Origin: a virus
Length of the DNA stretch: 64,000 nt
Virus record (IMG/VR): IMGVR_UViG_3300033233_000015
Location: 1-64,000 of that record
Direction: 5' to 3' (one strand)
The position numbers were made by a program, and so were the translations under genes. Below the pieces are notes generated by a model. The model saw only the letters and a program-made list of their open reading frames with translations, had not been told where the DNA came from and ran no database searches. Below are positions 23,864-54,163 of this stretch, in pieces. Each line of letters begins with the position of its first letter. The stretch's first letter is position 1.

Positions 23864-26103
23864 CGCGGCGACGTGATCGGAACGAAGATGTCGCACGCGC
23901 ACGGTTTGCCGTCGTCACGGGTGCCGGAGCACGACGGCTTGGACAAATCCTCGATCTGAGGCGATGGAGGATTCGAGAACACCAGTGATCGGTGAACATC
24001 TCGCATGTGACCGCATCGACACCTATCGTCTTTTTTCATTTCGTTCCTCCGTGCGGTGACGATCCGACGACGTCGACGACGTTCCACGCAAGGCCGCTCG
24101 GTGTGAGTTCTAGATCGGGCGCGCACCTCGGGCAGTGCCAAGCGACAGTGGGGATTCGAGACGCAGCGAGATCGGACTCGATGCGCTCGAGATCGCGCGC
24201 GTCGGGATCGCATCCGCAGGTCTCGCAGGTCCACTTCTTGTGATTCATCGGTATGTCCTCCCCTGCTTCCCGCTGACGTGAACGCATCCGTGCCTAAGCC
24301 ACGAGAGCCACGCCCCCATGATCGACATCGCTTCGCGCTGCGCGGCCTCGATCAAATGCTGCTGGAGGCGCTTCGGCGCGCAGCCGCAGACACGAATCGT
24401 GCGACCCAGGATGGTCGTCGACACGATCGGTGAACCGTCGGGTTGCAAGTGCATGTCGATCACGAACCGATGCCGACGATGCCGACGTTGTCCTTGATCT
24501 CCAGGCTCTCGAACGCGAGGTCGCTGATCGCGTGTCCCCACACGCCATACTGCTTGTGCTTCTTGTAGACAGCCTTGTACGCGCGCGCGAGCTGCCAGAG
24601 CAGGTAGCCGACAGACATCTGCTCGCGCTTGTTGCACGTGTACGGCTTGATCGTCACGCGAGCCACCTTGCTCAGCGGGTACGTGAGATCGAACGTGTAC
24701 GTCCTCGTCGGGAGATAGCTCTCGGTCGTCGCGAACGCTCCGCGACGGCGGCGACGGCTCTTGCCGAGCCGCGCTCCGCTAATGAGAGACCACTGCTCGG
24801 GCTTGAGCGTCGCAGCCGTCTCGACGTCTACGAAGAGCGAGAGATCGACCTCGCGCTGCGCGTCGTGCGAGGCACGCATGTCGGAGATGCGAAACATGCC
24901 GCGAGGCAGTTTTCGCTTGTGTTTGACGCTCGGTGGTGGCGGCGTCGGGATGCGTTTGATCTCCGTCGCGGGCTTCCTGCGACGGAACGTCATCGGCGGA
25001 GGAGTCGCCTTCGCAGGCAGGCCCTTGTGGACGACACGAATCGGCTTGCCGACCTCGACGAGCTCCACCATCTCGATCTCGGGTTCGGGGATCGTGTATG
25101 TCGGTTTCGCGCGCATCCACGCCGGCATTGGTCCGCGCGACGGCGGCCAGTTCATGAGACCGATCACCCTCTTCTTCGCTTTTTTTTTCATGTCGATTCC
25201 TCCATCCGCTTCATCCGCCTCGCCTCGTGCCCTCGCCTCCCGTTCGCTCTCGAGTCCACGCAGTACGTGCAGAACATCGGGTGATTGCACCCGACGCGCC
25301 ACTCGCGAGGTCGTCCGCACGTGCTGCACATCGCGATGCCGATCGCGTCATCCACCGCAGCGCCGACGAAGGCCGCAGCGGAGGTGATCAGCGGAACACC
25401 GCCAGCGGTCCACTTCGGCGCGAGCCGAACAGGGCTCTTCCTCCCTCGGTAGACGCTCCACGCGCGAGCTTCGGGGGCGCGGCTCTCATACAGGAAGGAG
25501 AGGGGGCTACCCTTCGCTCCGAGGTGCTGCGCCTCTTCGAAGAGCTCGAGGATCTCGTCACGGAGGTGGCTCACAAGAAGATGACGACGCGCCCGCGCAT
25601 CGCCCTCGCGAAGAGGCATGCATCGTCGTGCATGCGATACGGCATCGAGCAGAACGCGCAGCGGCGAAACCACCTCATCACGACCTCTTTTTCTGATCGG
25701 CGACCCACGCGACAACGGATCGATGAAGGTTCTCTCTGTGCGAGCTCGTCAGGTGCCAGGCGATCTGGCCTCCGATGTGCCACTCGAAGACGAAGAGCGC
25801 GATGGCGGTCGCGCGCTGTTCGATCTTCTCGCCTAGCGTCACGCACGCGGAGAAGATCGGGTTCGGATCGCGGAAGATCGCACTCGCGCGTGCGCGCGTC
25901 TCGCCACGCAGCATCGACGCCGACGTAACGGTGGAACCCCACTCCTCGAGCAGCTTGCAGACGTCGGGACGCTGGCCGTTCGAGGCGTACATCGCTTCGT
26001 TCTGACCTCGAAGGACGATGAAGAAGGCGAAGCCGAGACCGCCGAGCGATTCGTCGAGGGTCTTGGCGAGATCGCGTAGCGCGCTTTCGGTGGTGTCGCT
26101 CAT
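23860..26103 (-). CDS. Cluster of small hypothetical genes (23860-24039, 24036-24248, 24245-24454, 24460-25191, 25678-26103 and others)
   Basis: Overlapping start/stop coupling, GGAGG SDs, several Cys motifs. Confidence 0.5.
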
Positions 26104-27047
26104 CGCAAGAGGAAGCCTTCACCGTGGAGCTTGAAGAGGATGCGTCCCGCTTCGAGATCGTGGCGCTCCTTCACGGGGCGGACGACGAAGCCCTCGCGCA
26201 CGTGCGGCGCGAGCGTCGACTTGCCTTCAGCATGCAGGCGCAGTTCTCCGTCCCACGGACCACGGAAGAGAACAGGGACAGTGGGGACGCCGAGTTTCTC
26301 CGCCAACGCGAAGAAGTCGTCCGCGTCAAGCCAGCATCGCGTCTTCACATCGATCGCATCGAAGAGGCGCAAGCCGACATCGCCCGTCGAGACACCGTAC
26401 GGAAATCCGCCGGTGTACCCGTGCGTCTCGCCGTAGATACCGATGTTGGGATGCTCAGCGAGCTTCTCCGTCAAGCTGTACTTGCGCGCCGCCATCCACC
26501 ACTTCGACGAGGGCACGTCGAGCTTGAAGCGCGTGCGAGATCCGACCCACAAGCGTGTACCGTCGTGAACGTAGCGCGCGTTCTCGCCGTGGAGTTTCTC
26601 GGTGAGCACGACCTCCTCACCGAGGACGAGCTTGTCGGGGTAGCGACGCAGGCCCTCGACGTCGTACACCGGCAGCAGCCCCGGATCGCGTTCGTCGCCG
26701 CCGCCTTCCTTCTCCTCGGGCGGTTCGTACTTCGTGATCGATAGCGCGGCGGCAACGTCGTCGCCCTCGGACATGCCGACGTCAGCCCTCGTGAGGAGCC
26801 CCATCGAGAAGACGCCGCGGAGTCTCTTCGCGCGGATGCGGCGGTGATCGCCGAGGAACGCGAAGCGAAGATCGTTCGGCGCCACAACGGCGTCGACTGG
26901 CACGTACACCGCGAGATCGCCTTCGGCGAAGTCGCCGGTGCGGATGATGATCGGGTAACCGCGCACGCTTGTTATCGATAGACTGTCGGCGTTCGGATGC
27001 TTCGTCAGTGCGCCAACGCGCACCACTTCAACGTGAAATTCGCTCAT
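26100..27047 (-). CDS. RNA ligase, DRB0094/Rnl5-like
   Basis: N-terminal HPNADSL...LRGVFSMGL domain; motif I EKLHGEN, YGE, FD, EGFV and FK. Confidence 0.85.
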   Translation of the reverse strand: MSEFHVEVVRVGALTKHPNADSLSITSVRGYPIIIRTGDFAEGDLAVYVPVDAVVAPNDLRFAFLGDHRRIRAKRLRGVFSMGLLTRADVGMSEGDDVAAALSITKYEPPEEKEGGGDERDPGLLPVYDVEGLRRYPDKLVLGEEVVLTEKLHGENARYVHDGTRLWVGSRTRFKLDVPSSKWWMAARKYSLTEKLAEHPNIGIYGETHGYTGGFPYGVSTGDVGLRLFDAIDVKTRCWLDADDFFALAEKLGVPTVPVLFRGPWDGELRLHAEGKSTLAPHVREGFVVRPVKERHDLEAGRILFKLHGEGFLLR

Positions 27048-27343
27048 GTCGATGCCTCCTTCAAGACCCACGTCTCGCCGGTTACTTCTGCCTGGTACTT
27101 CGCGCACTCCTCGCAGAGCTCCGCGTTGACGACGCCGAAGATGACATCGCGCTTGGCGTGCGTCGCCTTACGAAAGCAGCCGGCCTTGCACGGGTGGAGC
27201 CTCGCTTCGAGGCTCTCGATGCGCGACTGAAGGGTCGCAGAGCGAAGCGCCTCTGCGTCAAGCTGCGCGCGTAGGCGCACGATGCAGAATTGATCACCGC
27301 CGCGCTGGCCGTGCGGGCACGGAGGTATCGCGTCTTCGGTCAT
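27044..27343 (-). CDS. Hypothetical protein
   Basis: Translationally coupled ORF. Confidence 0.5.
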   Translation of the reverse strand: MTEDAIPPCPHGQRGGDQFCIVRLRAQLDAEALRSATLQSRIESLEARLHPCKAGCFRKATHAKRDVIFGVVNAELCEECAKYQAEVTGETWVLKEAST

Positions 27344-33595: not shown

Positions 33596-35181
33596 GCGCG
33601 CATATTGGAACGGTCGGCACGCAGGGTTATCGCTTCAGCGTGCGCGTCTCGGCATCGACGGGCGGCGTCGAGGTGGCGGAGGTGTTCGGCGACGATCGCG
33701 ATCGGGATGACGTTCGCCTCGATCCGATCCAGGCCCGAAACCTCGCCGCGCTTCTCGTGCGGGCGTCGGAAGAGGTTGAGCGGATGCGTGCTCCTGCGGA
33801 TCGGGAACGGTCACGGATAAGAGTCGGCGATGCTCTGCTCGGAATGCGCGTGCGTTTGGACGGGGAGAAAGGCGAGGGCGAGATCGTTCAAATTCACTTC
33901 GGCGCCGTCGAAGTCGATTGGGGAGATGGCCGCATCACCACGGTGAAGCAAAATTCGGTAGGGAACCTTGGGGGACTGCTGCGCTCAGCGGTGAGGTCGC
34001 GCCAATGATCTCGCCCAAGTGCGCGAATCCATCGACGTGCGAGATTCATGGACCGCACTGCGAGTGCGGCCATCCGTACGCGCGCCACGGGTTGTCACCC
34101 GTCGGGCGGCGTGACGTGCACTCCAAGTGCGCCGACTGCGACTGCGTGAAGGTTCTTCCCGTTTCCGTGGTCGTCGTCGAGACCGACGAAAGCCGCGCGC
34201 GTCGTCAAGCCTTCCTCGACGCGCAGCCACCGATTCACGTCGAAGAACTCGATGTCGATCACGCAGCGCATCTCGTTACGAAGGCCGAGAAACTCGCGAA
34301 GACATTCCTGAACGCGCTCTCGCCGTCTTTCGACACAAGCGACAACAGGCTCGCGCTCGTTCGACTTCTGCTCGAGTTCGCGCGCGACGAGCGCGTCCGC
34401 ATGGCCGATCTGCTCGACGCTCGCGCCGCTCGAGAGCGAGCGAGCGGAGATGACATGAGTGACCCGCAGGGCATTGCGAATTGGATTCGCGACGGAGGGA
34501 ACCCGTGAAGCGCGAGACCGTCACGTACGAGTGCGATGCCTGCAAGAAGGCGATCGAGTGCTCCCCTGGAAAACTGGAAGAGCAGACCGGGGGAGAGTGG
34601 CGCATCTTGCGCGTTCACGTCTCTAGGATGAACGGACAGACGGTGTCTGAGGGACACGGCCACGCCTGCTCGAGCGTGTGCGCCGAAAAAGTGGTCGCGT
34701 CGCTGGCGATGGCGAAAAGAGGGAAGAGCACCCCTGACAAGCAGACGCCGGCGTCCATCAAGCAGTGGATCACCGATCAGAGGGTGGCTCAGGAGAAGCG
34801 ATCGAATCGACGGACGCGCACGAAGAAGGGGGCCGCACGATGAGCGATTGGGAACCAGAAGAGTACGCGGACGATCCGAAGGTCAACGCGATGCTCAACA
34901 TTGCTGCTGGCATTTTCGCCCTTGCGCGCGCGACCGACGGTCTTCTGTACGCGCTGAAATACAGCAAGGGAGAAGGCATGAGTGTCGCGGAAGCGATCGA
35001 GGTCGGCGCGAAAAACATCGCAGAAGCGATTCAACTCAGCGATCCCGAACCTGTCGAACCCGTAGACGTCGATCCAATCGTTGAGGCGATTTCTGACATG
35101 AAGATCGAACTGTCGACGGAACTGTCGCGCCTGTCGGCGGAACTGTCGGAAGCGATCTCCAAGTCATCGGACGAGCGATGA
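33592..35181 (+). CDS. Four hypothetical genes (33592-34008, 34005-34508, 34505-34843, 34840-35181)
   Basis: Coupled ORFs. Confidence 0.55.
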
Positions 35182-36266
35182 CCTCGCGCGTCTATCTTTG
35201 GGAGACAAAAACTACGTCTGAGGACATTTCGAACGGGTCGACGTTTTTTCTGAGAACCATTCTCGATCCGCAGCTCTCTCTCTACATACCCGCGCTGCGC
35301 ACGATGGGATTCGACCCGATCGGCGCCATCTACGACGTGCTACGCAAGCCGGGACAGTTGCCGTCGAACATTCCGCTCAAGGATGCGGACGGAGTGAAGA
35401 TCGTCTTCGACGCAGCAGGCCGGCGCGCGCGCACCAAGGACGGCAAGAAGTGGCGTGAGACGGGCGGCGACGGTCTCTTCTTGCAGACGCGACCCGAGAC
35501 TCCTGAGGAGTACGGCAAGCGTTGTCTCGGCGCCATCGCTGAGGATCCGAATAGGTACTACGCGCGGGCGAAGGTCGTGCGGCTCGAGGCCGACGAGCGC
35601 GAGGCTGCGGCGGACGTGTGGAACACGGCCACGCAGATGCGCGACGCGCGAAGACTGAAGGTGTTTGCGCGGAATCCTGATGCGTGCATGTCTTGGTCTC
35701 GTGAGTGCGACTACTTGCGCGTCTGCGCTGGGCAGGCCGACATCATGGATCCGATTCTGTTCAGGAACGAGGAGGCGCACGTCGAGTTGAAGTTGGAGAA
35801 CGAAGAGAGCGGAACCAATCTGCTCACGCAGAGCGCGATGCGTTCGTACCGTTCGTGCCCGCGCAAGTTCTACTATCGCTACGAGCTTCGTCAGCGACCG
35901 CTCAGCAAAGCGGAGGCGCTGACCACTGGCAACTCGGTACACGAGGCGCTCGACGTCTTCCGTCGCACCTGTTCGCTCGATGCGGCGCTGGTGGCGCTCA
36001 CGACCGACGATCTCTACGTGCGCGCGAAGGAGGCGGCGATGCTCGTCGGCTACGCCGCGCGCTGGCCGACTCCGCGAGGCGTCATCGCAATCGAAAAGCA
36101 GTTCCGCATCCCGCTCATCAACCCCGCTACCTGCGCACCGAGCAAGACGTTCGAACTTGGCGGAAAGGTCGACGCGATCGTTGAGGAGGAGGCCGCGCTC
36201 GCGTCGCTTGAACCGAGTTTGGAGTACGTGCTCGAAGGTTCGTTGAAGGAGGAGGCTGTTCCGTGA
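35178..36266 (+). CDS. PD-(D/E)xK Cas4/RecB-like exonuclease, circularly permuted
   Basis: ETKT, QLSLY and C..C....C come before SCPRKFYY, G.SVH, E.QF and GKVD. Confidence 0.8.
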   Translation: MTSRVYLWETKTTSEDISNGSTFFLRTILDPQLSLYIPALRTMGFDPIGAIYDVLRKPGQLPSNIPLKDADGVKIVFDAAGRRARTKDGKKWRETGGDGLFLQTRPETPEEYGKRCLGAIAEDPNRYYARAKVVRLEADEREAAADVWNTATQMRDARRLKVFARNPDACMSWSRECDYLRVCAGQADIMDPILFRNEEAHVELKLENEESGTNLLTQSAMRSYRSCPRKFYYRYELRQRPLSKAEALTTGNSVHEALDVFRRTCSLDAALVALTTDDLYVRAKEAAMLVGYAARWPTPRGVIAIEKQFRIPLINPATCAPSKTFELGGKVDAIVEEEAALASLEPSLEYVLEGSLKEEAVP

Positions 36267-36814
36267 GCTACGGCGGAACGCATCGACGCAACGATCTGAC
36301 TGGCGAAGTCTTTGGACGCTGGACTGTCGTTCGTCGCGTTGAGAATCGCCAGAGGCCGAGCGGAGTGATGGCGATGTACGAATGCCTATGTGTCTGCGGC
36401 GTCGTGAAGACGGTCCTCGCTCAAACGCTTCGATCCAGCAGTTCGCGCTCGTGCGGGTGTTTGCTGAAAGACGTCGCGGCGGAAATGTGCCGCGCACGAT
36501 CGACGCACGGTCATTCGCGCGGTGGAAAATTGACGCCGACGTTTCGTTCGTGGATTTCAATGCATGACCGCGTCCGATCAAATAATCCGAACAGCAAGCC
36601 GTATTACAAGGATCTTGGCATTCGCGTCTGCGACCGTTGGTCCGACTTCGAGAATTTCTTGAAAGACATGGGCGACAGGCCGTCGCTTCTCCATTCGCTC
36701 GATCGGTTCCCGAATGGCGATGGCAACTACGAGCCAGGCAATGTGCGTTGGGCGACCAGCGTGGAGCAGACCTTCAATCGCAAGAAGAGGAAACTTCCGA
36801 AAGGATCAACATGA
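36263..36814 (+). CDS. Putative homing endonuclease (HNH-like)
   Basis: DLTG..FGRWTV, C.C.CG, SCGC, W.SM..R, GI.VC.RW..FENF..DMG, SLDR...G.YEPGNVRWAT. Confidence 0.8.
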   Translation: MSYGGTHRRNDLTGEVFGRWTVVRRVENRQRPSGVMAMYECLCVCGVVKTVLAQTLRSSSSRSCGCLLKDVAAEMCRARSTHGHSRGGKLTPTFRSWISMHDRVRSNNPNSKPYYKDLGIRVCDRWSDFENFLKDMGDRPSLLHSLDRFPNGDGNYEPGNVRWATSVEQTFNRKKRKLPKGST

Positions 36815-37716
36815 TCGATCTGAAACGAATCACCGAAGGCAAGCAACAGCGCGAGCCGCGCGTCCTGATCTACTCCGCCGACGGCGTCGGTAAGACGCGA
36901 TTCGCGGCGGGTGCGCCCGATCCGTTCTTCATTGACGTCAATCGAGGCAGCTTCCAGTACGACGTCAAGCGCGTCGTGCCGGAGACGTGGAGCGAAGTGC
37001 TCGAATGGGTCGGCGCCGTCGAGCGCGGCGACATCAAGTGCAAGACGCTCGTCATCGACTCGATCAGTGACCTCGAGCACATCGGCAACGCGGAATTTTT
37101 TCCAAACACGACCATCGACAAATGGGACGGCGGATATGGACGCGGAACGGGCTACGCGGTGACGCGCTGGCGCGAGTTCGTCTCCGCCCTTGAGCGCGTT
37201 TGGAACGCCGGCAAGTCGATAGTCCTGATCGGCCACATGCAGGTGAAGCGGTTCGACGACCCGACCGGAGTCGGTTACGAGCGGTATCAGATCGCTGCTC
37301 GCGAACAACTCGCAGGTCTCCTTCGTCAATGGGTAGACTTCGTTCTCTTCGCGAATCTCGAGGTCGCGCAGCAGAAGGTCGGCGGCGACGTCAAGATGGT
37401 GACGAACGGCACGCGATGGATCCACACGCAGCGATCCCCCGCCTTCGACGCCAAGAGTCGAGGCACGACGCTCTTCCCCGAGAAGGTGCTCCTGTCGTGG
37501 GACGAGTTCGCCAAGGCGCGCGCGGCCGACACTGCGCGCGCGGAGGAGTTGAAGCGAGAGATCGAGTCGATGCTCAAAGAGATCGGCGACAAGAAGCTCG
37601 ACGAGATCGTCAAGGAGTACCTGCGCGCGAACCCCGGCATGGTGGTCGAGGCGCGCAACCGCGTGGCGTCGAAGTTGGAAGAGAAGAGAGCGAGTTCGAA
37701 GGAGAACGACAAATGA
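36811..37716 (+). CDS. Sak4-like AAA ATPase (single-strand annealing protein)
   Basis: DGVGKT, VIDSI, GGYGRG, LIGH, AKSR. Confidence 0.85.
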   Translation: MIDLKRITEGKQQREPRVLIYSADGVGKTRFAAGAPDPFFIDVNRGSFQYDVKRVVPETWSEVLEWVGAVERGDIKCKTLVIDSISDLEHIGNAEFFPNTTIDKWDGGYGRGTGYAVTRWREFVSALERVWNAGKSIVLIGHMQVKRFDDPTGVGYERYQIAAREQLAGLLRQWVDFVLFANLEVAQQKVGGDVKMVTNGTRWIHTQRSPAFDAKSRGTTLFPEKVLLSWDEFAKARAADTARAEELKREIESMLKEIGDKKLDEIVKEYLRANPGMVVEARNRVASKLEEKRASSKENDK

Positions 37717-38231
37717 TCAGTCCGGGGAATTACAAGGCCAAGGCAGTCAAGAGCAGCGTGCAGTTCGGCGAGACCGAGCGAGGCAATCTCCAGATCGCGG
37801 TCGATCTGGACATCAAGAACGAGAAGGGGGAGTCGCTCGGCACGATGACGACGTTCCTCTTCTTCACCGACGCCTCGCAGAGCTACTCGTACGAGCGACT
37901 GCGCGCGCTCGGGTGGCAGGGCAAAGGTCCCGAAGAGGTCGACAACATGGAGGGCATCGACGCGAACGAGGTCGAAGTTCGCGTCACGCAGCCAGAGTCG
38001 TACAAGGCGCCCGACGGCACGATGAAGATGGGACAGAGCAAGGTCGAGATCACGACGGGTGCCGGAAAGGTCGTGCTCGCGAAGACGGTCGACGCCTCGA
38101 CGTTCAAGGCTCGATTGAAAGCGCTCGGCGGCGGCGGTGCAGCTCCGTCGGGCGGCAGCAGCGGCGGAGCAGCGGCGCCGCCGTTCATCTTCAACACGAT
38201 CGAGGCGGACGAGCCGTGGTGGAGGGGCTGA
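37713..38231 (+). CDS. SSB-like protein
   Basis: Follows Sak4; PG.YKA start; Gly/Ala-rich tail ending APPF plus a short extension. Confidence 0.6.
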   Translation: MISPGNYKAKAVKSSVQFGETERGNLQIAVDLDIKNEKGESLGTMTTFLFFTDASQSYSYERLRALGWQGKGPEEVDNMEGIDANEVEVRVTQPESYKAPDGTMKMGQSKVEITTGAGKVVLAKTVDASTFKARLKALGGGGAAPSGGSSGGAAAPPFIFNTIEADEPWWRG

Positions 38232-38656
38232 AGCAGTGCTTCAAGTGCGGCAAGCATTTGCCGAGACAGGCGTTCTACCGTCATTCAAAGATGGCGGACG
38301 GCCTTCTCGGCAAATGCAAGTCGTGCACGAAAAACGACGCAATCAACCATCGGATGAAGAATCCGGAGCGTATGCGTGAATCCGAACGTGCCCGAAGACA
38401 GACGCCGAAGCGACGCGCGTGGGCGAAGCAATACGAGAACACTCCGGCTAGAAAACGAATCTCGTTTGCCCACCACAAGGTGTGTCAGGCGATCATCGAC
38501 GGAAAACTGGTCAAGAAGCCCTGCGAAGTATGCGGAGACAAGGCCAATGCTCATCACGATGACTACAGCAAGCCGCTCGACGTTCGATGGTTGTGCACCA
38601 CTCACCACGTAGAGCATCACCGAATGATGAGGAAAAAGGCAGAGGACGCAGGGTAG
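38216..38656 (+). CDS. HNH endonuclease
   Basis: CFKC...FY.H..MADG.L.KCK.C; PCEVCG...AHHDDYSKPLDVRWLC..HH. Confidence 0.85.
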   Translation: MVEGLKQCFKCGKHLPRQAFYRHSKMADGLLGKCKSCTKNDAINHRMKNPERMRESERARRQTPKRRAWAKQYENTPARKRISFAHHKVCQAIIDGKLVKKPCEVCGDKANAHHDDYSKPLDVRWLCTTHHVEHHRMMRKKAEDAG

Positions 38657-38876
38657 GGATCGGCGGTTGAGGGCCGCGCATCGGGTGAAGCAAAGGAGAA
38701 GCGCAGGATCGAGGAGGTCGATTCGTTTTTCGATAAGACCTCGGTAGGCCGCGCGCTTCGAGGAACGTACGGAGATCAAATCTCCCGCAGAGACCCAAGG
38801 TAGCCACTCGGGCTCACGCATCCAGAGGCGCGCAAGCCTCGAACGCCCGGTGCTCGGCTGCTCAGCCGCCGATCCC
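38656..38876 (+). ncRNA. Candidate ~220-nt structured non-coding RNA
   Basis: 38656-38671 pairs with 38861-38876 (16 bp, one GU); stem extends via 38678-38687/38844-38853; several internal hairpins. Confidence 0.6.
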
Positions 38877-38896
38877 AACACGACACGGAGGAAGAC

Positions 38897-39253
38897 ATGG
38901 ACGAGATCGAATTGAAGAAGGTCTGCGACGAAATCTTGGTGATCTCGGACTTCCTGAACGCGACGACCGAGGAGACTAACGAGCGCAACGAGGACAACTC
39001 GTACGTCGCCGAGAAGAATCCGACCGATCCGATCCGAGAGCCCGGTGAGCAGTTCGACATCCGTGTTCAGCGCGAACACGGCAAGGCGTGGCAGGCACGG
39101 GTGACGCGATCGGTTCGCCAACGGAACGCCGTAGTTGTCACCGTCGCACGCGGTCTTGTGTCCCTCAGTCCAGCAGCGGCGCTCCTGTCGCTGCTCGACG
39201 TACTGAAGGTGGATCTTCGTCACCGTCGGGATGCGGCGGCGAGGTTCATCTAA
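38897..39253 (+). CDS. Hypothetical protein
   Basis: GGAGG SD. Confidence 0.6.
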   Translation: MDEIELKKVCDEILVISDFLNATTEETNERNEDNSYVAEKNPTDPIREPGEQFDIRVQREHGKAWQARVTRSVRQRNAVVVTVARGLVSLSPAAALLSLLDVLKVDLRHRRDAAARFI

Positions 39254-39384
39254 GAGTCTCGGGGAGCGTCTTCCTTTCGTTCCTTTCGGAAGTCGCTACG
39301 AGCATCGACGCGCGGCCGATGCCCCGATGATCCGTGCACCTGTCGCCGTGGCGTGGCACGGCAATTTCGACTTCGGAGAGGGCG

Positions 39385-39930
39385 ATGTCAAAGAAACGCG
39401 CGTACTGCTCCCACTGCAAGCACGATGATCACAAGGGCCGCAAGTGCGGCTACGGTGAGGGCATCGGTACGACCGTCGCGGTGTGCGTCTGCGAGACCGA
39501 CAAGCGAGGCCGAGTCGTCACGCCCGCGAGCGTGGAGTTCGTGAATCGCGAGACGCTCTTCGCGAAGGCGCTCGACGATGCGGCGAAGGCCGCCCACGCG
39601 ATGGGCGACGCGCTTGCGCGCGCGCACGAGGATGCTCGTCGCGAAGGGATCGAACGAGCTGTCTTCGGAGATCGCGAATGCACTGGCGGGGGGATCGTGA
39701 AGACCAGCGACCGTAAAACGCAGCGAGATCATCAGATCGAGATCAAGCTCAGCGCCAGTGAACGCCTTCTCTTCAAGGCGGTCACGAAACGACGCGGCTT
39801 CCGAAACATTTCGGAGATGGTTCGATACGTCGTACGCGCGTACGAGGAGGACACCCGCGAGGGGCGACCAGTCTGCACGGGGCAACTCGTTCACGACGCA
39901 TTCAATTCTTGCCCGGTGCACGACGCATGA
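39385..39930 (+). CDS. Hypothetical protein with a C-terminal RHH-like segment
   Basis: IEIKLSASER..F....G..NISEMVR. Confidence 0.55.
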   Translation: MSKKRAYCSHCKHDDHKGRKCGYGEGIGTTVAVCVCETDKRGRVVTPASVEFVNRETLFAKALDDAAKAAHAMGDALARAHEDARREGIERAVFGDRECTGGGIVKTSDRKTQRDHQIEIKLSASERLLFKAVTKRRGFRNISEMVRYVVRAYEEDTREGRPVCTGQLVHDAFNSCPVHDA

Positions 39931-40445
39931 CGACGATGCCTCTCTTGCCCGGCGTCAGCGGCACCGCTCGCTTCAGCGAGGACGGTCGCTACCGCTACAT
40001 GCTCCGTCGCTGGTGGCAGGGCGGTGGCCGTGCCGCCATCTTCATCGGTCTCAACCCGAGCAAGGCGGGCTCGGACGTAGACGATCTCACGATCCGCAAG
40101 TGCATCGGCTTCGCGACCACTTGGGGATGCAGCGAGATCGTCATGCTGAACCTCTTCGGTCTCATCGCGACGGATCCCGAGGAGCTCTTCACCTCGCTCG
40201 ATCCGGTCGGTCGAGAGAACGAGTATTGGGTCGACCAGACGCTCGCGCTGTACGGCGACGACGCCAAATTGATCGCCGCGTGGGGCGCGCATCCGATGGC
40301 GGAGACGCGCGGCTGCAAGCTCGAGTACGCGCTTCGGCCGCGCAAGATGATGTGCCTCGGTAAGACCAAGGACGGATCACCGCGGCACCCGTCACGAATC
40401 GCGTACGCGACTGCGCTCGAGCCGTTTCGCGGAGGTTCGCTTTGA
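39927..40445 (+). CDS. DUF1643 family protein
   Basis: YRY.L.R.W, FIGLNPS, DD.TIRKC..FA, NLF...ATDP, AAWG, G.TKDGSPRHP. Confidence 0.9.
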   Translation: MTTMPLLPGVSGTARFSEDGRYRYMLRRWWQGGGRAAIFIGLNPSKAGSDVDDLTIRKCIGFATTWGCSEIVMLNLFGLIATDPEELFTSLDPVGRENEYWVDQTLALYGDDAKLIAAWGAHPMAETRGCKLEYALRPRKMMCLGKTKDGSPRHPSRIAYATALEPFRGGSL

Positions 40446-40768
40446 GTCGCAGAAAGCAGTGCGCGAAGTGCCCGTGGCGCGTGGATGTCGATCCGAACGA
40501 CATCCCGAACGGCTACTCGCGCGAGCTTCACGCGGGGCTCGCGTGCACGATCGCGGAGCCAGGCGCGATTCGCGTCGGTGCTCTTCGCATGATGGCGTGC
40601 CACGAGTCGAAGGTCGGCAAAGAGAAACCGTGCGTCGGATGGCTCGCGAACCAACTCGGTCCAGGGAACAACATCGCGCTTCGCATCTGCGCGCTGCGCG
40701 ACAAGAGCCTTGCGAACTTCCGTCTCGTGGGTGAGCAGCACGAGCGGTTCGAGGACACGTTGCCATGA
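40442..40768 (+). CDS. Cys-rich protein (DUF6283-like)
   Basis: C.KCPWR.D...MACH.S...C.GWL. Confidence 0.65.
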   Translation: MSRRKQCAKCPWRVDVDPNDIPNGYSRELHAGLACTIAEPGAIRVGALRMMACHESKVGKEKPCVGWLANQLGPGNNIALRICALRDKSLANFRLVGEQHERFEDTLP

Positions 40769-41246
40769 GCGTCAGCGACGAGAAGAAGACATACGCCGCC
40801 GACATCCTCGACGAACTTCGGAGTGGGGGTCGGGACGTCGCGGGCGTTGTCGTCATCGTGGTCACCGAGCACGGCAGCGATCTGCGTGTGTCGGTTGCCG
40901 ACGGGTTTTCTAAGAATCTTGTGCTCGACAGCGCGCAGGAGACGATCGCTTCGATTCCGCGCGAGCGCTGGAAGATCGAAGTGGAGATCAAGGGGTACGG
41001 GGTATGAAAATATCGACCGTTGGGAATGGCCAAGCAAGATGGATGTCCACGCGAACCGCTGTACGCGAGACGCTCTACGAGGCGAAACGATCCATGACGA
41101 TCGAGGAGTTGGTGGAAGAGACGGAGGGAGCAGCATCGACCATTCGTAGTCACCTCGCTGATCTCGTATGGGACGGGCGTGTTGTTCGGATCGAAGATCA
41201 CCCCGTTCGTTACATTCATTCGTTTTGGGCCAAACAACGCACATGA
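40765..41246 (+). CDS. Two small genes (40765-41007; 41004-41246, wHTH-like)
   Basis: Coupled ORFs; MTIEEL.EET..A.STIRSHLADL..DGRV. Confidence 0.55.
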
Positions 41247-41659
41247 AAGCCCTATCCCTCCGCCAGCCGTGGGCCGCGCTCGTCGTGCACTTCGGCAAGC
41301 ACATCGAGAATCGGCGCTGGAACACCTCGTTCCGTGGCGAGTTCCTCATCCACGCGGCCAAGGGCATGACGAATCGCGAGTTCGAGGAAGCGATGGACTT
41401 CGCGTTTGAGTTGATCGGCGACAAGTGCCCGACCGAAGCGCAGCTCCGATCGATGCTCATGTTCGGTGGCATCGTCGGTCGCGCGAATCTTGTCGATGTG
41501 ATTCCCCCGCGATCGATGTTCTATCCGTCGGGCGTCGAGCGCGGGTGGCACATGCCCGAGCAGTACGGCTTCGTCCTCGAGAGCGTCGCGCCGCTGACGT
41601 TCGAACCGATGCGCGGCGAGCTCGGGTTCTTCGAGGTTCGGAAGGTGGCCAATGTCTGA
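41243..41659 (+). CDS. ASCH domain protein
   Basis: KALSLRQPWA, GKHIENR.W.T.FRG..LIHA. Confidence 0.9.
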   Translation: MKALSLRQPWAALVVHFGKHIENRRWNTSFRGEFLIHAAKGMTNREFEEAMDFAFELIGDKCPTEAQLRSMLMFGGIVGRANLVDVIPPRSMFYPSGVERGWHMPEQYGFVLESVAPLTFEPMRGELGFFEVRKVANV

Positions 41660-44270
41660 CTACCGCATCCTCCAAGGCGACGCGCTCGAGCGTCTTCGCG
41701 AACTGCCGTCCGACTCGTTCGACGCGATGCTCTGCGATCCGCCGGCCGGAATTTCGTTCATGAACAAAAAGTGGGATGGCGATAAGGGCGGACGCGATCA
41801 GTGGATCGCGTGGCTCGCCGACGTCATGCGCGAGGCGAGGCGATGTTTGAAGCCTGGCGCGTACGCGCTCGTGTGGGCGCTTCCCCGCACGTCGCACTGG
41901 ACCGCGATGGCGATCGAGAACGCGGGCTTCGAGGTGCGCGATGTCGTCACGCATGTCTTCGGGTGTCTGAGCGATGACACCGAAATACTGCTCGATTCAG
42001 GGTGGACCCGCTACCGTAATATCGACGAAGGTGATCTCGCACTTTGCTACGATGCGGAGCATGACGAGTTCCGATGGCAGCGCGTCGAGGAAGTCGTCTC
42101 CTACGCCTACGCGGATACCGCCTTCCGTATTCGCTCGGATCGTACAGACCAGCTCGTCTCCCGCGAGCACCGCTGCCTCGTTGAACGAGATGGAGGCTAC
42201 GCTTTCGCGCGAGCAGACTCACTGGAACGCGAAGCGCGTGTACCCGTTCTGGAAGACGTGCACGAACTGCTCGCAGCCCTTCCCGTGCCATACGAGGGAA
42301 CAGGCGGTTCGGAACGCATCGTGTGCGGGGTGTCACGGATCGCTCATCTCGAAGGCGAAAAAGGGTGTCTACCGAACGCCCGCAGCGACATGCCTGCATT
42401 GTCGCAAGACGTTCCGTCGTCATCGAGGTCAGCCGACATCGCGCGCGAAATACTGCACCAAAAAATGTTGGGGAGCTGCACGGTCAGCGGACCCGAAGTT
42501 CGCGGCGAAGATGCGGAAGATCGGGGCATTGGGTCGGTCGGGATGGACGGCCGCGAGCGCGGACTCGTATCGGGAGAAGATGAGCGGAGCGAAGAATCCG
42601 GCCTGGCGGGGCGGAGTCACTTTCAAGCGGAACAAGGGGAACTACATCGGGCCGAAGTACGTGAGATGTCCGAAGGTGTTCGCCAAGATGTCGCGCAAGG
42701 ACGGCTACGTGATGGAGCATCGACTAGTCGTCGCTCAGCAGATCGGTCGCTCGCTGACGCGCACGGAGTCAGTGCACCACGAAGACCACAACACGCGGAA
42801 CAACTCACCATCGAACCTTCTGCTCTTCGCGACGAACCGAGATCACAAGCTGTACGAGGCGCACGGTTCACCCGCACCGATCTGGCGACTGTAGAGCCCG
42901 TTCTGTACGAGGGCATCGTCTGGTGCGTTCGGGTGCCGACGGGGGCGTTCGTCGCGCGTCGTAACGGCAAGGCGTTCGTCACGGGTAATTCTGGTTTCCC
43001 GAAGTCGCTCGATCTGTCGAAAGCGATCGACGCGCACTTCGGCGCCGAGCGCGAGGTCGTCGGCACGCGAACGCTGACGGGCAACGCAGCGGTCTCGACG
43101 AAGGAGAAGGGCGGCACGTACGGTGTGCAAGTCGGCACCGCGCCGGCGAAAGAGGTCGATGTGACGACGGCGGCGACGCCAGAGGCCGCTGCGTACGACG
43201 GCTACGGCACGGCGCTGAAGCCCGCCTCCGAGCACTGGATCCTCGCGCGCAAGCCGCTCGAGGGGACGTACGCGGAGAACGCGTTGAAGTGGGGGACGGG
43301 AGGGATCGCGATCGATGCGTGCCGCATCGGATACGCCAGCGAGGGCGATCAAGCAGCAGCAGCGCAACGAGCGTGCCACGATCAGAACGCGGGTCGCACG
43401 GCCTACGGCGACTTCAACAACGGCGCAGCGTCGCTGCCTGGCTACTTCGAGAAGCAGGCGCTCGGCCGATGGCCCGCGAACCTCATGCTGTCGCACGCGG
43501 ACGGGTGCGAGCGGACCGGCTCGTCGACGTCGATACGATCCGTACCGCGCGGCGTCTCGGTGCGAAATAACAAGAACGCGATCTACGGCCCTGGCCTCGG
43601 CGGTCGGCCGGAAAAGGTCGAAGAGGTCGAAGAGGTCGAAGAGGTCGAAGAGGTCTTCTCGTGCGTCTCGGGATGCCCTGTCAAGCTCCTCGACGAACAG
43701 AGCGGCGATCGTCCCGGCATGTCCGGCGGCGGCGCGCACCACTCGGAGTACGAGGGCGGCATGTTCGGCGCGATCGACTCGACGTCGACGGCGCGCGCGG
43801 ACACGGGCGGCGCGTCGCGCTTCTTCTACGTCGCCAAGGCCAGCCGCTTCGAGCGCGAGCTCGGATGCGAACATCTTCCGAAGAAGTCGGCGGGCGAGAT
43901 GGTCGATCGCGAGGACGAGAGCGACGGTATGAAGAGCCCACGCGCTGGCGCGGGCCGCACGGGCGGAGCGCGCAACCATCACCCCACGATCAAGAGCGTC
44001 GCGCTCGCGACGTACCTGGCAAAGCTCATCAAGCCGCCGAAGTCCGCGAGGCTGCTCAATCCGTTTGCCGGATCGGGCACCGAGGGCATCGGCGCGATGC
44101 GCGCGGGCTTCGACGAGATCGTCTGCATCGAACTAGAGCCCGAGTACGTCGCCATCGCCGAAGCTCGCTTCGCGCGATGGTCGGAGATCCCCACGCACGT
44201 CAACCCGCAGGAGTCCAAACCCGCGAAGGTGGACGAGCGGCAGGCGTCGCTCTTCGGAGGTTCGCGATGA
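41652..44270 (+). CDS. Beta-class N6A/N4C DNA methyltransferase with intein
   Basis: DPPA motif IV; FG|intein|SGFPKS; LKPA.E...LARKP; GRWPAN; HPTIK; NPFAGSGT. Confidence 0.88.
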   Translation: MSDYRILQGDALERLRELPSDSFDAMLCDPPAGISFMNKKWDGDKGGRDQWIAWLADVMREARRCLKPGAYALVWALPRTSHWTAMAIENAGFEVRDVVTHVFGCLSDDTEILLDSGWTRYRNIDEGDLALCYDAEHDEFRWQRVEEVVSYAYADTAFRIRSDRTDQLVSREHRCLVERDGGYAFARADSLEREARVPVLEDVHELLAALPVPYEGTGGSERIVCGVSRIAHLEGEKGCLPNARSDMPALSQDVPSSSRSADIAREILHQKMLGSCTVSGPEVRGEDAEDRGIGSVGMDGRERGLVSGEDERSEESGLAGRSHFQAEQGELHRAEVREMSEGVRQDVAQGRLRDGASTSRRSADRSLADAHGVSAPRRPQHAEQLTIEPSALRDEPRSQAVRGARFTRTDLATVEPVLYEGIVWCVRVPTGAFVARRNGKAFVTGNSGFPKSLDLSKAIDAHFGAEREVVGTRTLTGNAAVSTKEKGGTYGVQVGTAPAKEVDVTTAATPEAAAYDGYGTALKPASEHWILARKPLEGTYAENALKWGTGGIAIDACRIGYASEGDQAAAAQRACHDQNAGRTAYGDFNNGAASLPGYFEKQALGRWPANLMLSHADGCERTGSSTSIRSVPRGVSVRNNKNAIYGPGLGGRPEKVEEVEEVEEVEEVFSCVSGCPVKLLDEQSGDRPGMSGGGAHHSEYEGGMFGAIDSTSTARADTGGASRFFYVAKASRFERELGCEHLPKKSAGEMVDREDESDGMKSPRAGAGRTGGARNHHPTIKSVALATYLAKLIKPPKSARLLNPFAGSGTEGIGAMRAGFDEIVCIELEPEYVAIAEARFARWSEIPTHVNPQESKPAKVDERQASLFGGSR
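41964..42989 (+). mobile_element. Intein (342 aa) in the methyltransferase
   Basis: Starts CLSDDTEIL; block B VSREHR; ends VWCVRVPTGAFVARRNGKAFVTGN with +1 Ser. Confidence 0.9.
42190..42894 (+). CDS. HNH endonuclease nested in the +1 frame inside the intein
   Basis: CxxC Zn motifs, NPAWRGG, YVMEHRLVV...ESVHHEDHNTRNNSPSNL. Confidence 0.85.
   Translation: MEATLSREQTHWNAKRVYPFWKTCTNCSQPFPCHTREQAVRNASCAGCHGSLISKAKKGVYRTPAATCLHCRKTFRRHRGQPTSRAKYCTKKCWGAARSADPKFAAKMRKIGALGRSGWTAASADSYREKMSGAKNPAWRGGVTFKRNKGNYIGPKYVRCPKVFAKMSRKDGYVMEHRLVVAQQIGRSLTRTESVHHEDHNTRNNSPSNLLLFATNRDHKLYEAHGSPAPIWRL
43611..43655 (+). repeat. 9-bp tandem repeat (GAAGAGGTC x4 plus one variant) encoding EEV
   Basis: Directly visible. 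Confidence 0.95.
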
Positions 44271-45358: not shown

Positions 45359-46036
45359 GTGAACAATCCGAACGCGGTCGTTCTTCTCTCGGGAGGCATG
45401 GACTCGGTGGCGGCGCTCTATTGGGCGCGGACGCGGTACGACCGCGTCTTCGCCGTGTCGTTCGACTATGGTCAGCCGAACCGCGACGCCGAACTGTACG
45501 TAGCGGGGACGTGCGCGAAGGGGCTCGACATCAAGTGGGATCGGCTCGTCCTGGCGGGGCTTCCTCGAGCGGGGCTCCTCGATCACATCGAGCCGCACAA
45601 CGACGCGAAACCGATCAACGCCGCGTTCGTGCCCGGCCGGAACCTCGTCTTCCTCACGCTGGCGGCGGGCCGTGCGACGTCTCTCTGCCCGAACGGCAAC
45701 ATCGATCTCGTCATCGGAGCGTGCGTCGACGACGCGCGCGGGTTCCCCGACTGCCGCGCGACGACGCTGGCGAAGCTCGGCGAGGCGCTGCGTGCGGGCA
45801 TGGCGAGGGAGATCCAAATCGTCTCGCCGTGGATCGATCGCACCAAGACGCAGATCCTCGACTCGCTCGACGGAGCTGCGCGTATCGCCGTCGCACGATC
45901 GTGGTCGTGCTACCGAGGCACGGGGCCGTGCGGCGAATGCTCGGCCTGCGTCGCACGCGCACGCGCGTTCGCCGCTGCGCATCTTCGCGATGAATCCTCG
46001 ATGCCCATCATGACGGGCGGGGACGGTGCGCGATGA
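45359..46036 (+). CDS. queC: 7-cyano-7-deazaguanine synthase
   Basis: LSGGMDS, DYGQ, VPGRN, PDCR, SCY...CGEC.AC..R. Confidence 0.92.
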   Translation: MNNPNAVVLLSGGMDSVAALYWARTRYDRVFAVSFDYGQPNRDAELYVAGTCAKGLDIKWDRLVLAGLPRAGLLDHIEPHNDAKPINAAFVPGRNLVFLTLAAGRATSLCPNGNIDLVIGACVDDARGFPDCRATTLAKLGEALRAGMAREIQIVSPWIDRTKTQILDSLDGAARIAVARSWSCYRGTGPCGECSACVARARAFAAAHLRDESSMPIMTGGDGAR

Positions 46037-47754: not shown

Positions 47755-49152
47755 TGACGATTGGTTCATTGTTCTCGGGCATAAGTAGGCGGCCTCGAGT
47801 TGGGGCTTGAGCGCTCGGGCTTCGGCCCCGTCGTCTTCCAGTGCGAGATCGATCCGTTCTGCCGCAGCGTGCTCGCAAAGCACTGGCCCGACGCAAAGAG
47901 GTATGAGGATGTCCGATCCATTGACGAGTCCGCTCCACGAGTCGACGTCCTCTGCGGAGGATTCCCTTGCACGGACATCAGCGTCGCTGGAAGGGGAGCG
48001 GGACTCGAGGGAGAGCACTCCGGGCTCTGGTTCGAGTTCGCTCGCATCATTCGCGTTCTACGACCGCGGATCGTTGTTGCCGAAAACGTGGCAGCTCTCC
48101 TTGGTAGGGGAATCGATCGTATACTCGGAGACCTTTCCTCGCTCGGGTACGATGCGGAGTGGTCGACTCTACGAGCGAGCGACTTGGGCGCGCCGCACCT
48201 CAGGGATCGCGTCTTCATCATCGCGTGGAGGGTGGCCGACGCCGACGGCGAACGACTGGAAGGGGCCGAACCTCAGCGGGAGCGGGACGGCGAGCTCGAA
48301 CTCGCTGTCGACGAAGGTAGCGTTGTGGCCGACGCCGAACGCAGCGAGGGGGCAGACGCTCCCCGAGGAAGCGTCGGACACGGGAGCGATGCCCGACGGC
48401 TCGAAGCGTCAGTTCGGTCTTCGCGAAGCGGTGAAGCGATCGACATGGCCGACGCCACGAGCTCACGATGCGGAGTCGCCGGGCGGATTCGATCGAGCGA
48501 CGGAGGGCGGCCCGAGCTTGGCGACGGCGGTGCGATTGTGGCCGACGCCCGACGCTTCGATGGTGACGGGCGGTCGGACGCTGCCGTCGGACTGCTCGGA
48601 TACGGGGCGCATGCCCGACGGGACGAAGAGACAGATGGGGCTGCGCGAGGCGGTGAAGCGCTCGACGTGGCCGACGCCGACAGCGGGCGATGCGAAATCA
48701 TCGGGATCGAGGAACCTCGAAGGCTCGGATGCACATCAGGGGATCTCGCTGACGGATCTGGTGCTGCACGGAGGCTCGACGATCGGCCGCCGTGGGACGA
48801 CGACGTGGCCGACACCGAGCGCGACGCCGTACGGATCGAGTCAGAACGGGGTGAACAGCGACAGACCGAGTGCGGGGACTCCGTCGCTCGAGACGAGCGC
48901 GAAGAAGGAGGGCGGCGTCCTGAATCCGTCGTGGGTCGAGTGCCTGATGGGATTTCCGATCGGGTACACCGATGGCCTGCCGGTCCCGACGAAGAGCAGT
49001 ACGAGTGGGAGCCGCCGCGCGCGCTCCCCAAAGGCCGACACCCCAACCGAGCCGCACGACTGAAGGCGCTCGGCAACGCGGTCGTGCCGCAGCAGGGCGA
49101 GGTTGTCGGTCGAGAGGTGCATCGGATTCTTGCTGAGCGAGGTGTGATGTGA
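47751..49152 (+). pseudogene. C5-cytosine DNA methyltransferase, alpha polypeptide, frameshifted in motif I
   Basis: SLFSGI [extra AGTA at 47784-47787] GGLELG; GFPC, ENV, R.RVF and LKALGNAVVP are intact. Confidence 0.8.
47903..49063 (+). CDS. Overlapping alternate-frame MTase beta polypeptide with WPTP repeats and motif IX
   Basis: Six WPTP repeats and LNPSWVECLMGFPIGYT; frame open for more than 1.1 kb; start uncertain. Confidence 0.7.
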   Translation: MRMSDPLTSPLHESTSSAEDSLARTSASLEGERDSRESTPGSGSSSLASFAFYDRGSLLPKTWQLSLVGESIVYSETFPRSGTMRSGRLYERATWARRTSGIASSSSRGGWPTPTANDWKGPNLSGSGTASSNSLSTKVALWPTPNAARGQTLPEEASDTGAMPDGSKRQFGLREAVKRSTWPTPRAHDAESPGGFDRATEGGPSLATAVRLWPTPDASMVTGGRTLPSDCSDTGRMPDGTKRQMGLREAVKRSTWPTPTAGDAKSSGSRNLEGSDAHQGISLTDLVLHGGSTIGRRGTTTWPTPSATPYGSSQNGVNSDRPSAGTPSLETSAKKEGGVLNPSWVECLMGFPIGYTDGLPVPTKSSTSGSRRARSPKADTPTEPHD

Positions 49153-53276: not shown

Positions 53277-54163
53277 TGCTCTCCCTACCTTCCGAACTCG
53301 CAGGTCTTCCGCTCGTCGCGTCCGTGAGCGGAGGCAAGGATTCGACGGCGCTCATCCTCGCGCTGCTCGAGGCGGGGCTCGTGACGCGCTACGTCTTCGC
53401 CGACACGGGATGGGAAGCGCCAGAGACGTACACGTACCTCGACACGCTCCGCACGAAGCTCGGGATCGTGATCGACGTAGTGGGCGTGCCAGGAGGGATG
53501 CTCGCCATCGCGACGAAGAAGGCGGGCTTCCCTCAGCGCAAGGGGCGGTGGTGCACCGAGAAGCTCAAGATGATTCCGATCCGCGAATACCACCGCGCGA
53601 TCGGCGCCGACGTCGTCAACGTGGTCGGCGTCCGCGCGGAAGAGAGCGCGAAGCGGGCGGCGATGTCGGAACTCGAGGACGACGCCGAATGGGGCGGGTG
53701 GGTGTGGAGACCGCTGCTTCGATGGAGCGTCGCGGAGGTGCTGGCGATCCACCATCGACACGGCGTCCCCGTGAACCCGCTCTACAAGCGCGGTCACAAC
53801 CGCGTCGGCTGCTACCCGTGCATCAACGCCGACAAGGAAGAGATCCGCCTCGTCGCCGAACACTCGCCCGAGCGCATCGACGAGATTCGGGCGCACGAGC
53901 TGGCGCAGAGCACCGAGCGCGCGCGCCGCAACACGAGCGGCGAAGGAAACTTCAAGCATCTGACCTCGACGTACTTCAGTGCGCGTGAGTCGCTCGGACC
54001 GCGCGGCATCGACGAGGTCGTGGAGTGGTCGCGCACCGACCACGGCGGCAAGCAGCTGCCGCTCCTCGCTTCCGTTCCGAGCGGCGGATGTATGCGATGG
54101 GGTCTCTGCGAACCGCCGACGACGGAAGGAGAAGGAGAAGACGATGCAGCACAAGGAAATTGA
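53276..54163 (+). CDS. PAPS reductase family (PP-loop) protein
   Basis: SGGKDS, ADTGWE, WCTEKLK, GVRAEES.KR, RPLLRW, NPLY..G..RVGC.PC. Confidence 0.88.
   Translation: MLSLPSELAGLPLVASVSGGKDSTALILALLEAGLVTRYVFADTGWEAPETYTYLDTLRTKLGIVIDVVGVPGGMLAIATKKAGFPQRKGRWCTEKLKMIPIREYHRAIGADVVNVVGVRAEESAKRAAMSELEDDAEWGGWVWRPLLRWSVAEVLAIHHRHGVPVNPLYKRGHNRVGCYPCINADKEEIRLVAEHSPERIDEIRAHELAQSTERARRNTSGEGNFKHLTSTYFSARESLGPRGIDEVVEWSRTDHGGKQLPLLASVPSGGCMRWGLCEPPTTEGEGEDDAAQGN

Follow-up and report, generated by a model that had tools for sequence, protein, structure and literature searches.

The question raised by this locus is whether a 221-nt intergenic stretch in the genome of an uncultured bacterial virus is an RNA in its own right, a structure that works within a longer message, or a remnant of palindromic DNA. 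The stretch, hereafter the element, occupies positions 38656–38876 of the window, by which we mean the whole 64,000-nt DNA sequence analyzed (positions 1 to 64,000 of IMG/VR virus record IMGVR_UViG_3300033233_000015); the record itself comprises 110,081 bp and is rated complete by CheckV. The element lies between a gene for an HNH-type endonuclease and an ORFan gene, and the original prediction, made from the letters alone, had described it as an unrecognised structured RNA directly after an HNH gene. Our analysis demonstrates that the element is non-coding and that its structure is real and far beyond chance. The explanation that we favor, tentatively and at somewhat less than an even chance, is that it acts in cis as an RNA structure within a polycistronic transcript: an intercistronic stem of the RNase III type, bordering a mobile HNH insertion. 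The features that define the locus are as follows.

38216–38656, plus strand: HNH-type (His-Me finger) endonuclease gene, 146 aa, matching phrog_2340 'endonuclease' at E 4.3e-26
38656–38687, plus strand: 5′ arm of the closing helix, 32 nt with 31 paired, from the minimum-free-energy (MFE) fold, the helix table and a gapless inverted repeat
38688–38843, plus strand: branched core, from the MFE fold and pair probabilities
38844–38876, plus strand: 3′ arm of the closing helix, 33 nt with 31 paired, from the MFE fold and the helix table
38887–38892, plus strand: ribosome-binding site (GGAGGA) of the next gene, which does not pair with the element in the fold of 38600–38960
38897–39253, plus strand: ORFan gene, 118 aa, with coding-like G+C by codon position (0.66/0.39/0.76)

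The boundaries of the element are tight. The TAG stop of the upstream gene occupies 38654–38656, and its final G is the first base of the element; on the other side, the element's end is followed by 10 nt, the GGAGGA site and the ATG of the next gene at 38897. Both flanking genes are on the plus strand. A conserved open reading frame (ORF) across the region was one of the observations that, according to the original prediction, would speak against an RNA, and none was found: stops are present in all three plus frames, and G+C is flat by codon position in the element's frames (0.59–0.67), compared with 0.39–0.49 at position 2 and 0.69–0.86 at position 3 in neighbouring genes, so that the genome's coding G+C pattern is seen in no frame of the element. 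Three mechanical minus-strand ORFs cross the element without a Pfam match, and the longest of them runs opposite to the HNH gene, a gene with 319 relatives. A crude gene call leaves several further uncalled stretches of at least 240 nt in the same gene arm, and the original statement that this gap is one of the largest there is not established.

To quantify the fold, the element was compared with shuffled sequences, a check that had been proposed together with the original prediction. All arms and inner hairpins quoted in that prediction were found in place, and every one of them is used in the MFE fold. The plus-strand RNA reached −120.4 kcal/mol, against −85.98 ± 4.51 kcal/mol in 200 dinucleotide shuffles (z −7.63), and none of the 200 shuffles was as good. 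The same was true of the minus-strand RNA (−110.7 kcal/mol, z −5.57, 0/200) and of the single-stranded DNA fold (−59.3 kcal/mol, z −4.83, 0/200). The core alone (38688–38844) gave −58.2 kcal/mol on the plus strand (z −2.65, 1/200 shuffles as good) and −59.9 kcal/mol on the minus strand (z −2.29, 5/200). The closing helix comprises 31 pairs, arranged as 16 bp, a 1-nt bulge, 5 bp, a 1×1 mismatch and 10 bp, with a mean pair probability of 0.99. Within the core, two hairpins are robust (38771–38785, P 0.93; 38790–38815, P 0.96); the left domain (38698–38759, with a hairpin at 38714–38742) and the GAGGC hairpin at 38825–38840 are bistable (P 0.35–0.51), and about half of the core ensemble is in alternative pairing. 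Because the core alone has a z of only −2.65 and is partly bistable, with the helix at P 0.99, the exceptional feature is the long-range closing stem, and the multibranch core is merely mildly beyond chance.

The same conclusion on strength holds against the genome's own background. When the energies of 1485 windows of 221 nt covering the whole 110,081-bp record were regressed on G+C, the element, taken in register, lay 4.6 standard deviations below the fit. Two of the 1485 windows lie lower: one in an iteron-like inverted repeat near the record end and one in coding sequence just upstream of the element.

The pairing also carries a strand bias. In the closing helix, the four wobble pairs are without exception G–U on the plus strand, with no A–C among them, whereas all four would be A–C on the minus strand; the plus strand folds 9.7 kcal/mol better than the minus strand. 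The differences between the arms are all G–U compatible on the plus strand; the original prediction had claimed this of most of them. Under random transitions, four of four would arise with a chance of 1 in 16, and the bias is a hint of RNA-level selection rather than proof of it.

We then considered how such an RNA would be made. No sigma-70-like promoter was found in 37500–40000, and no intrinsic-terminator T-run follows the closing helix; AACACGACACGG follows instead. A terminator scan returned one weak inner candidate at 38706–38724, and its four sites in the scanned region compare with 2.3 ± 1.5 in shuffles. With neither promoter nor T-run, an independent RNA gene is not indicated by the signals around the element, which is most simply read as an internal segment of a transcribed polycistronic message. 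The original claim of a structured RNA thus stands in part: the structure is real, better on the plus strand and unrecognised, but no promoter or terminator of its own was found, and an RNA gene is not indicated.

If the element is an intercistronic stem, it would be carried within the rightward polycistronic transcript of the recombination/replication gene arm, between the stop of a seemingly inserted free-standing HNH gene and the ribosome-binding site of the next gene. Its active part would be the 31-bp helix, about three turns of double-stranded RNA (dsRNA) and a natural substrate for RNase III in a bacterial host. Cleavage, or the stable helix alone, would separate the HNH message from the downstream message, and this separation would set the stability of each message independently and insulate downstream translation. 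Transcription, RNase III cleavage and an effect on expression are all inferred.

Several observations are consistent with this reading. The idealised Escherichia coli RNase III substrate is put at 22 bp, or two A-helical turns, with a minimum of about 11 bp, in PMC3867540, and long stems flanking rRNAs in polycistronic precursors are cut by RNase III according to PMC6582327. Measured against the ~22 bp of two turns, the element offers 31 pairs, of which the outer 16 are contiguous, at P 0.99. The strong GGAGGA site of the downstream gene is left free by the fold of 38600–38960, so that the downstream gene can start on its own. A signal dominated by the helix, with a core at z −2.65 of which half is bistable, is more what one would expect of a processing or insulating stem than of an elaborate functional RNA. 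We also count in its favor the plus-strand G–U bias, the same-strand neighbours, and the hairpins that follow some HNH relatives and some homologues of a 172-aa gene upstream, both described below.

Known families were searched with 4227 Rfam models, which include HEARO, 6S, Y RNA-like, tmRNA, RNase P, SRP, group I/II introns and riboswitches. In the whole 64-kb window there was no match at gathering score, and a permissive scan of 38400–39100 returned three matches, all with E > 1 and at no more than half the gathering score. ARAGORN detected no tRNA or tmRNA gene in the window. The proposed Infernal/Rfam check therefore matched no known family, and the description of the element as unrecognised, without a tmRNA, RNase P, SRP or tRNA signature, was borne out.

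Homologues were sought in progressively larger collections. The element is single-copy: no further copy was found in the virus genome, and it has no similarity to IS1595 ends or to other parts of the genome. BLASTN and nhmmer searches with the 221 nt against 33 loci gave nothing, with a best E of 0.46. A covariance model (R1), built from the single sequence and its MFE structure, recovered only the element itself from the window and the 33 loci (best other match 13.6 bits, E 0.072, 87 nt), had no match in four related virus genomes (95–100% complete) searched along with the element's own, and reached at best 11.5 bits (E 0.18) in 80 metagenome loci with HNH relatives. BLAST searches in five related records (four rated 95–100% complete, one 65%) yielded just chance matches of 14–19 nt, and the INPHARED phage collection one chance match of 30 nt (E 0.3). 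The two-arm pattern of the closing stem occurred in none of 2.9 million viral contigs and none of 241 million metagenome records.

Bacterial genomes were scanned with a looser two-arm pattern, which occurred at 83 places in unrelated phyla. Of these, 80 were examined: pairing in most is confined to the 11 bp that the pattern imposed, none shares inner sequence, and all 80 are chance hits or unrelated palindromes. Four long palindromes among them (L153, L154, L159 and L171) were considered as relatives and rejected: they are unrelated, single-copy in their genomes and without an Rfam match. Two of these are curious in themselves. L153 1501–1716 and L154 1501–1729, from metagenome-assembled genomes labelled Steroidobacteraceae and Gammaproteobacteria, are homologous near-perfect palindromes of 216–229 nt, reaching −208.7 kcal/mol; their flanks are palindromic too, and they share with the element only the 11-nt ends imposed by the pattern.

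These results bear on how firmly the RNase III-type stem can be held, and several points weigh against it. With its 221 nt and an insert of 157 nt, the element greatly exceeds the size that a simple processing hairpin would require. A six-frame search of the genome found no RNase III encoded by the virus. The G–U bias is weak evidence, resting on four of four pairs, and a palindromic DNA element gives the same fold statistics (z −4.83 as DNA). No homologue of the element was found in any of the searched collections, so that covariation provides evidence neither way. A sequencing-run lookup for the stretch gave one DNA run, perhaps the one from which the record derives, and no RNA run; in the contigs of that DNA run, one identical contig spans the element, with no variants and no joints.

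We next assessed the upstream gene. It starts with GTG and overlaps the end of the preceding gene (stop at 38229–38231). Its family comprises 319 relatives at E ≤ 0.001, the closest at 56% identity, and an alignment of 36 members contains invariant Cys and His columns; a secondary match is to 'endonuclease VII' (phrog_1035, E 1.7e-9). The upstream gene is thus an HNH-type nuclease, by its phrog_2340 match and its conserved Cys/His motifs, exactly as described at the outset. A hairpin with 13-bp arms (GCATTTGCCGAGA / TCTCGGCAAATGC) lies at 38254–38317, within the first 35 codons of this gene; it belongs to a second strongly folding stretch, 38111–38331 (residual z −4.8), and so do the preceding gene's Gly-linker codons, which are G+C-rich.

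A functional link between the element and the HNH gene, which the original prediction had itself called speculation, failed the co-occurrence check. Covariance model R1 matched at none of 82 loci with HNH relatives, namely the 80 metagenome loci, found via the 36-member alignment, and two viral loci. On a crude map of plus-strand ORFs of at least 50 aa, in which minus-strand genes and short ORFs are ignored, the next ORF begins less than 100 nt from the HNH stop in 47 of these loci and farther away in 22, and could not be placed in 13. Downstream stretches of 221 nt were folded at 64 of the 82 loci, with 12 mononucleotide shuffles each for a rough z; left out were 16 loci with too little DNA past the stop, and L077 and L082, apparent duplicates of L076 and L080. 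Six of the 64 had a rough z below −4, and none of these resembles the element: three carry plain G+C-rich hairpins just past the stop, and three look like generally paired sequence, where an ORF follows immediately or within a long gap. A tie between the element and the HNH family is, on these comparisons, not supported.

The wider gene neighbourhood was then examined. The other genes around the element are listed here.

35178–36266: PD-(D/E)XK nuclease (Pfam PDDEXK_1)
36263–36814, plus strand: first free-standing HNH endonuclease in this arm (phrog_374, E 7e-52)
36814–37716: AAA_24 ATPase (Pfam AAA_24)
37713–38231: 172-aa gene with a Gly-rich tail, no family
39334–39930: 198-aa ORF, no family
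39909–40445: DUF1643 protein (Pfam DUF1643)
40442–40768: DUF6283 protein (Pfam DUF6283)

The AAA_24 protein recovered 27 viral loci, 21 at 64–80% identity, three at 48% and three at 33%. The three most distant (33%) match the ATPase alone, and L024 ends within the 172-aa gene; in all 24 loci whose stored DNA reaches that far, the 172-aa gene follows the ATPase. The HNH gene, the element and the small genes after it were found in none of the related loci. On a crude ORF map, the next gene there most often has about 450–520 codons, and its copy in L016 matches window positions 21593–22462 on the other strand. The 198-aa ORF and a 163-aa ORF have no relatives among viral contigs, and the relatives of the DUF1643 protein reach only 41–44% identity, with no element nearby. 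The element therefore lies at a synteny break, in a block apparently unique to this virus.

The left edge of that block can be placed by comparison. In most relatives the frame of the 172-aa gene ends in ...CCGTTC and a stop; in this virus, at 38170–38231, the frame continues past those codons for another 17, which overlap the HNH start. This looks like the left edge of the HNH-block insertion, at the tail of the 172-aa gene. If the 172-aa protein is a factor like single-stranded DNA-binding protein (SSB) with a C-terminal Pro-Phe tip, that tip would be buried in this virus.

Two further ideas about this region were tried and rejected. Patchy similarity in a MAFFT alignment suggested homology between the element and the gap after the 172-aa gene in relatives, but when a profile of eight such gaps was searched without filters, nothing near the element matched at E ≤ 100. 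The HNH gene and the element are flanked by an apparent direct repeat (GCCGCCG...CAACACGA), which is not significant, as 28 of 300 shuffles scored as high.

Among 18 related loci that were folded, many have an ordinary G+C-rich hairpin in the gap after the 172-aa homologue. Eight of them (L009, L012, L013, L018, L019, L020, L022 and L023) share a small hairpin, GGGAAAAGGAGATCCC or a near variant, which stands immediately ahead of the next gene and presents the ribosome-binding site in its loop; in most of the eight a G+C-rich hairpin precedes it. The GGGAAAAGGAGATCCC-type hairpin is a conserved translational element of this virus group, and it is absent from the genome of the window.

The first alternative is that the element is a functionless palindromic remnant of DNA, either a solo copy of a repeat from the host resembling miniature inverted-repeat transposable elements (MITEs) or REPINs, or a recombination scar of the HNH block, tolerated between genes. 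We regard this as rather improbable. In its favor, terminal inverted repeats surround about 157 bp, the stretch folds well as DNA, and it sits at the synteny break, where 24 related loci with the upstream gene have no HNH gene, no element and none of the next genes. The genome also holds other mobile DNA, including a second free-standing HNH gene, an intein with HNH_3 and an IS1595 transposase. Against this, the element is single-copy in its genome without similarity to insertion-sequence ends, it has no target-site duplication (the flanks GGGTA| and |AACAC do not repeat), and the direct repeat that might have marked a scar is not significant. The two-arm pattern is absent from the viral and metagenome collections, the 80 examined bacterial matches are unrelated and the four long palindromes single-copy, and all differences between the arms are G–U compatible on the plus strand. 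The MITE/REPIN-like version is weakened accordingly, although the host genome may hold a family.

A second alternative treats the element as an excised or autonomous trans-acting non-coding RNA (ncRNA) of an undescribed family, about 160–220 nt long, released by cleavage in the closing helix, whose target would be viral or of the host, or which would work together with a protein. The architecture suits such an RNA: a long terminal helix encloses a multibranch core in which two hairpins are highly stable (P 0.93 and 0.96). Compared with shuffles, the core has a modest excess of stability (z −2.65, 1/200), and no Rfam family matches. Nevertheless we consider it unlikely. Neither a promoter nor a terminator of its own was found, no homologue and no covariation emerged from the searched collections, and half of the core is bistable. 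The element has no complementarity of at least 14 nt to the rest of the genome, only matches to itself, and none of the typical partners is encoded: a six-frame search of the whole genome found neither a reverse transcriptase (RVT_1) nor a Ro/TROVE protein, and no reverse transcriptase turned up in the ORFs compared with Pfam. Two specific versions are ruled out on this basis, a retron-like element, as the genome has no reverse transcriptase, and a Y-RNA-like (YrlA) element, as there is neither a TROVE nor an Rfam match.

The downstream ORFan is the nearest candidate for a partner. It found itself alone among 5.8 billion proteins and has no viral relative. In the ESM Atlas, its model (pLDDT 0.62) lies near Ribosomal_S30AE, dsRNA-binding and DUF3622 clusters, with TM scores of 0.40–0.59, all under the naming bar; these dsRNA-binding and HPF-like neighbours count for a trans-acting RNA, but the AF2 model of the ORFan is too poor to be used for it (pLDDT 52.3, pTM 0.29). 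A dsRNA-binding or HPF-like fold for the ORFan is a lead only. Searches of the neighbouring genes with PADLOC and NCBIfam returned just two weak helix-turn-helix (HTH)-type matches, in an 80-aa ORF at 41004–41246. It is a long shot, in our estimation, that the element is a stand-alone viral ncRNA cut out at the 31-bp helix and working with the ORFan 21 nt downstream, such that HNH gene, RNA and ORFan would together make up a single mobile accessory cassette, such as a regulator or a decoy against host defence.

Least probable of all, and in our judgment hardly credible, is a functional DNA site, that is, a cruciform or protein-binding inverted repeat serving as the target of the adjacent, structure-tolerant nuclease or in replication or recombination: its place within a recombination module (PD-(D/E)XK nuclease, AAA_24 ATPase, Gly-rich-tail gene), the secondary 'endonuclease VII' match of the HNH protein (phrog_1035, E 1.7e-9) and the presence of another long, iteron-origin-like inverted repeat at 109.34–109.54 kb of the genome would suit it, but the element contains no iterons or repeated motifs, the cumulative G+C-skew minimum is at about 30–32 kb and not at the element, the imperfections of the arms favor RNA pairing, and no such site occurs at HNH relatives. 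Its four GATC sites were considered as an origin mark and rejected, since GATC is common genome-wide (11 per kb, with at least four in 23% of 221-nt windows).

Several other features of this genome were recorded in passing. The inverted repeat of iteron-like units, at positions 109340–109545 of the virus's own genome, lies beyond the window and after a Prim-Pol gene (106636–109293). GATGGGGAT occurs in it four times within 109381–109447 and the inverse, ATCCCCATC, twice; no other window in the genome scan is as extreme a low-energy outlier (residual z −5.0), and the repeat is a candidate replication origin. Just upstream of the Prim-Pol gene, genome positions 106389–106635 hold a promoter-like TTGACG-17 nt-TAGAGT and, after it, a hairpin of about 90 nt with a single U–G difference between its arms on the plus strand; the stretch has a rough z of −6.2 and is a candidate for a structured leader. 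Mobile and RNA-related genes are numerous in the genome (21590–23902, minus strand; 26100–27107, minus; 36263–36814, plus; and own-genome 104013–105032, minus), among them a UvrD-like helicase split by an intein with HNH_3, an RNA ligase, the second free-standing HNH endonuclease and an IS1595-family transposase. Farther along the same arm as the element, window positions 45359–46036, 41652–44270, 47800–49152 and 53120–54163 encode QueC, two DNA methylases and a protein with a PAPS-reductase domain, which suggests DNA modification in this virus, possibly of the 7-deazaguanine type.

Should the element prove to be a cis-acting intercistronic stem, this virus would be one more in which a long dsRNA stem between cistrons separates the expression of a selfish endonuclease gene from that of its neighbours. 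Such a result would help annotation without being surprising, as the mechanism is of a known kind. The enclosed RNA would matter more if it were a discrete product with a partner, as phage structured RNAs of such size with known roles are few and this lineage is uncultured. Orphan intergenic stretches that fold strongly are not uncommon in viral genomes, and the element, a singleton, has its main value as a well-documented candidate.

The element can be compared with several known systems. Like HEARO, the omega-RNA of IscB, it would be a structured RNA beside an HNH-domain gene. Unlike that system, its neighbour has 146 aa, in which Pfam finds no RuvC or other domain, and the RNA lies downstream of the gene rather than upstream; HEARO itself was below the Rfam threshold and absent at E ≤ 10, and an IscB-type protein, with RuvC and HNH domains in several hundred amino acids, was not found next to the element. 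Retron msr-msd RNA likewise pairs its 5′ and 3′ ends (a1/a2) around stem-loops, but the six-frame search found no reverse transcriptase anywhere in this genome. In MITE- and REPIN-type repeats, inverted terminal repeats enclose 100–250 bp and form long hairpins when transcribed; unlike them, the element is present in a single copy, has no target-site duplication and has no family in three collections.

The RNase III sites of phage T7 early and late mRNAs are single hairpins of a few tens of nucleotides. Unlike these, the element, a putative cleavage site, encloses 157 nt of RNA without known identity. In the mobile cassette of T4-type phages treated in 10.1101/2022.08.31.505936, a homing endonuclease gene travels with the 50-nt bypass insert of gene 60; as here, a free-standing endonuclease gene stands beside a non-coding structured insert. 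The T4 insert interrupts coding sequence and ribosomes bypass it, whereas the element is intergenic, four times longer and found beside none of the 82 HNH relatives examined. With intercistronic RNase III stems as a kind (RNase III is reviewed in PMC3867540), the element shares an imperfect double-stranded stem of more than two helical turns, which here would lie between the cistrons of one transcript; as in the stems that flank 16S and 23S rRNA (PMC6582327), its distant arms enclose a structured RNA.

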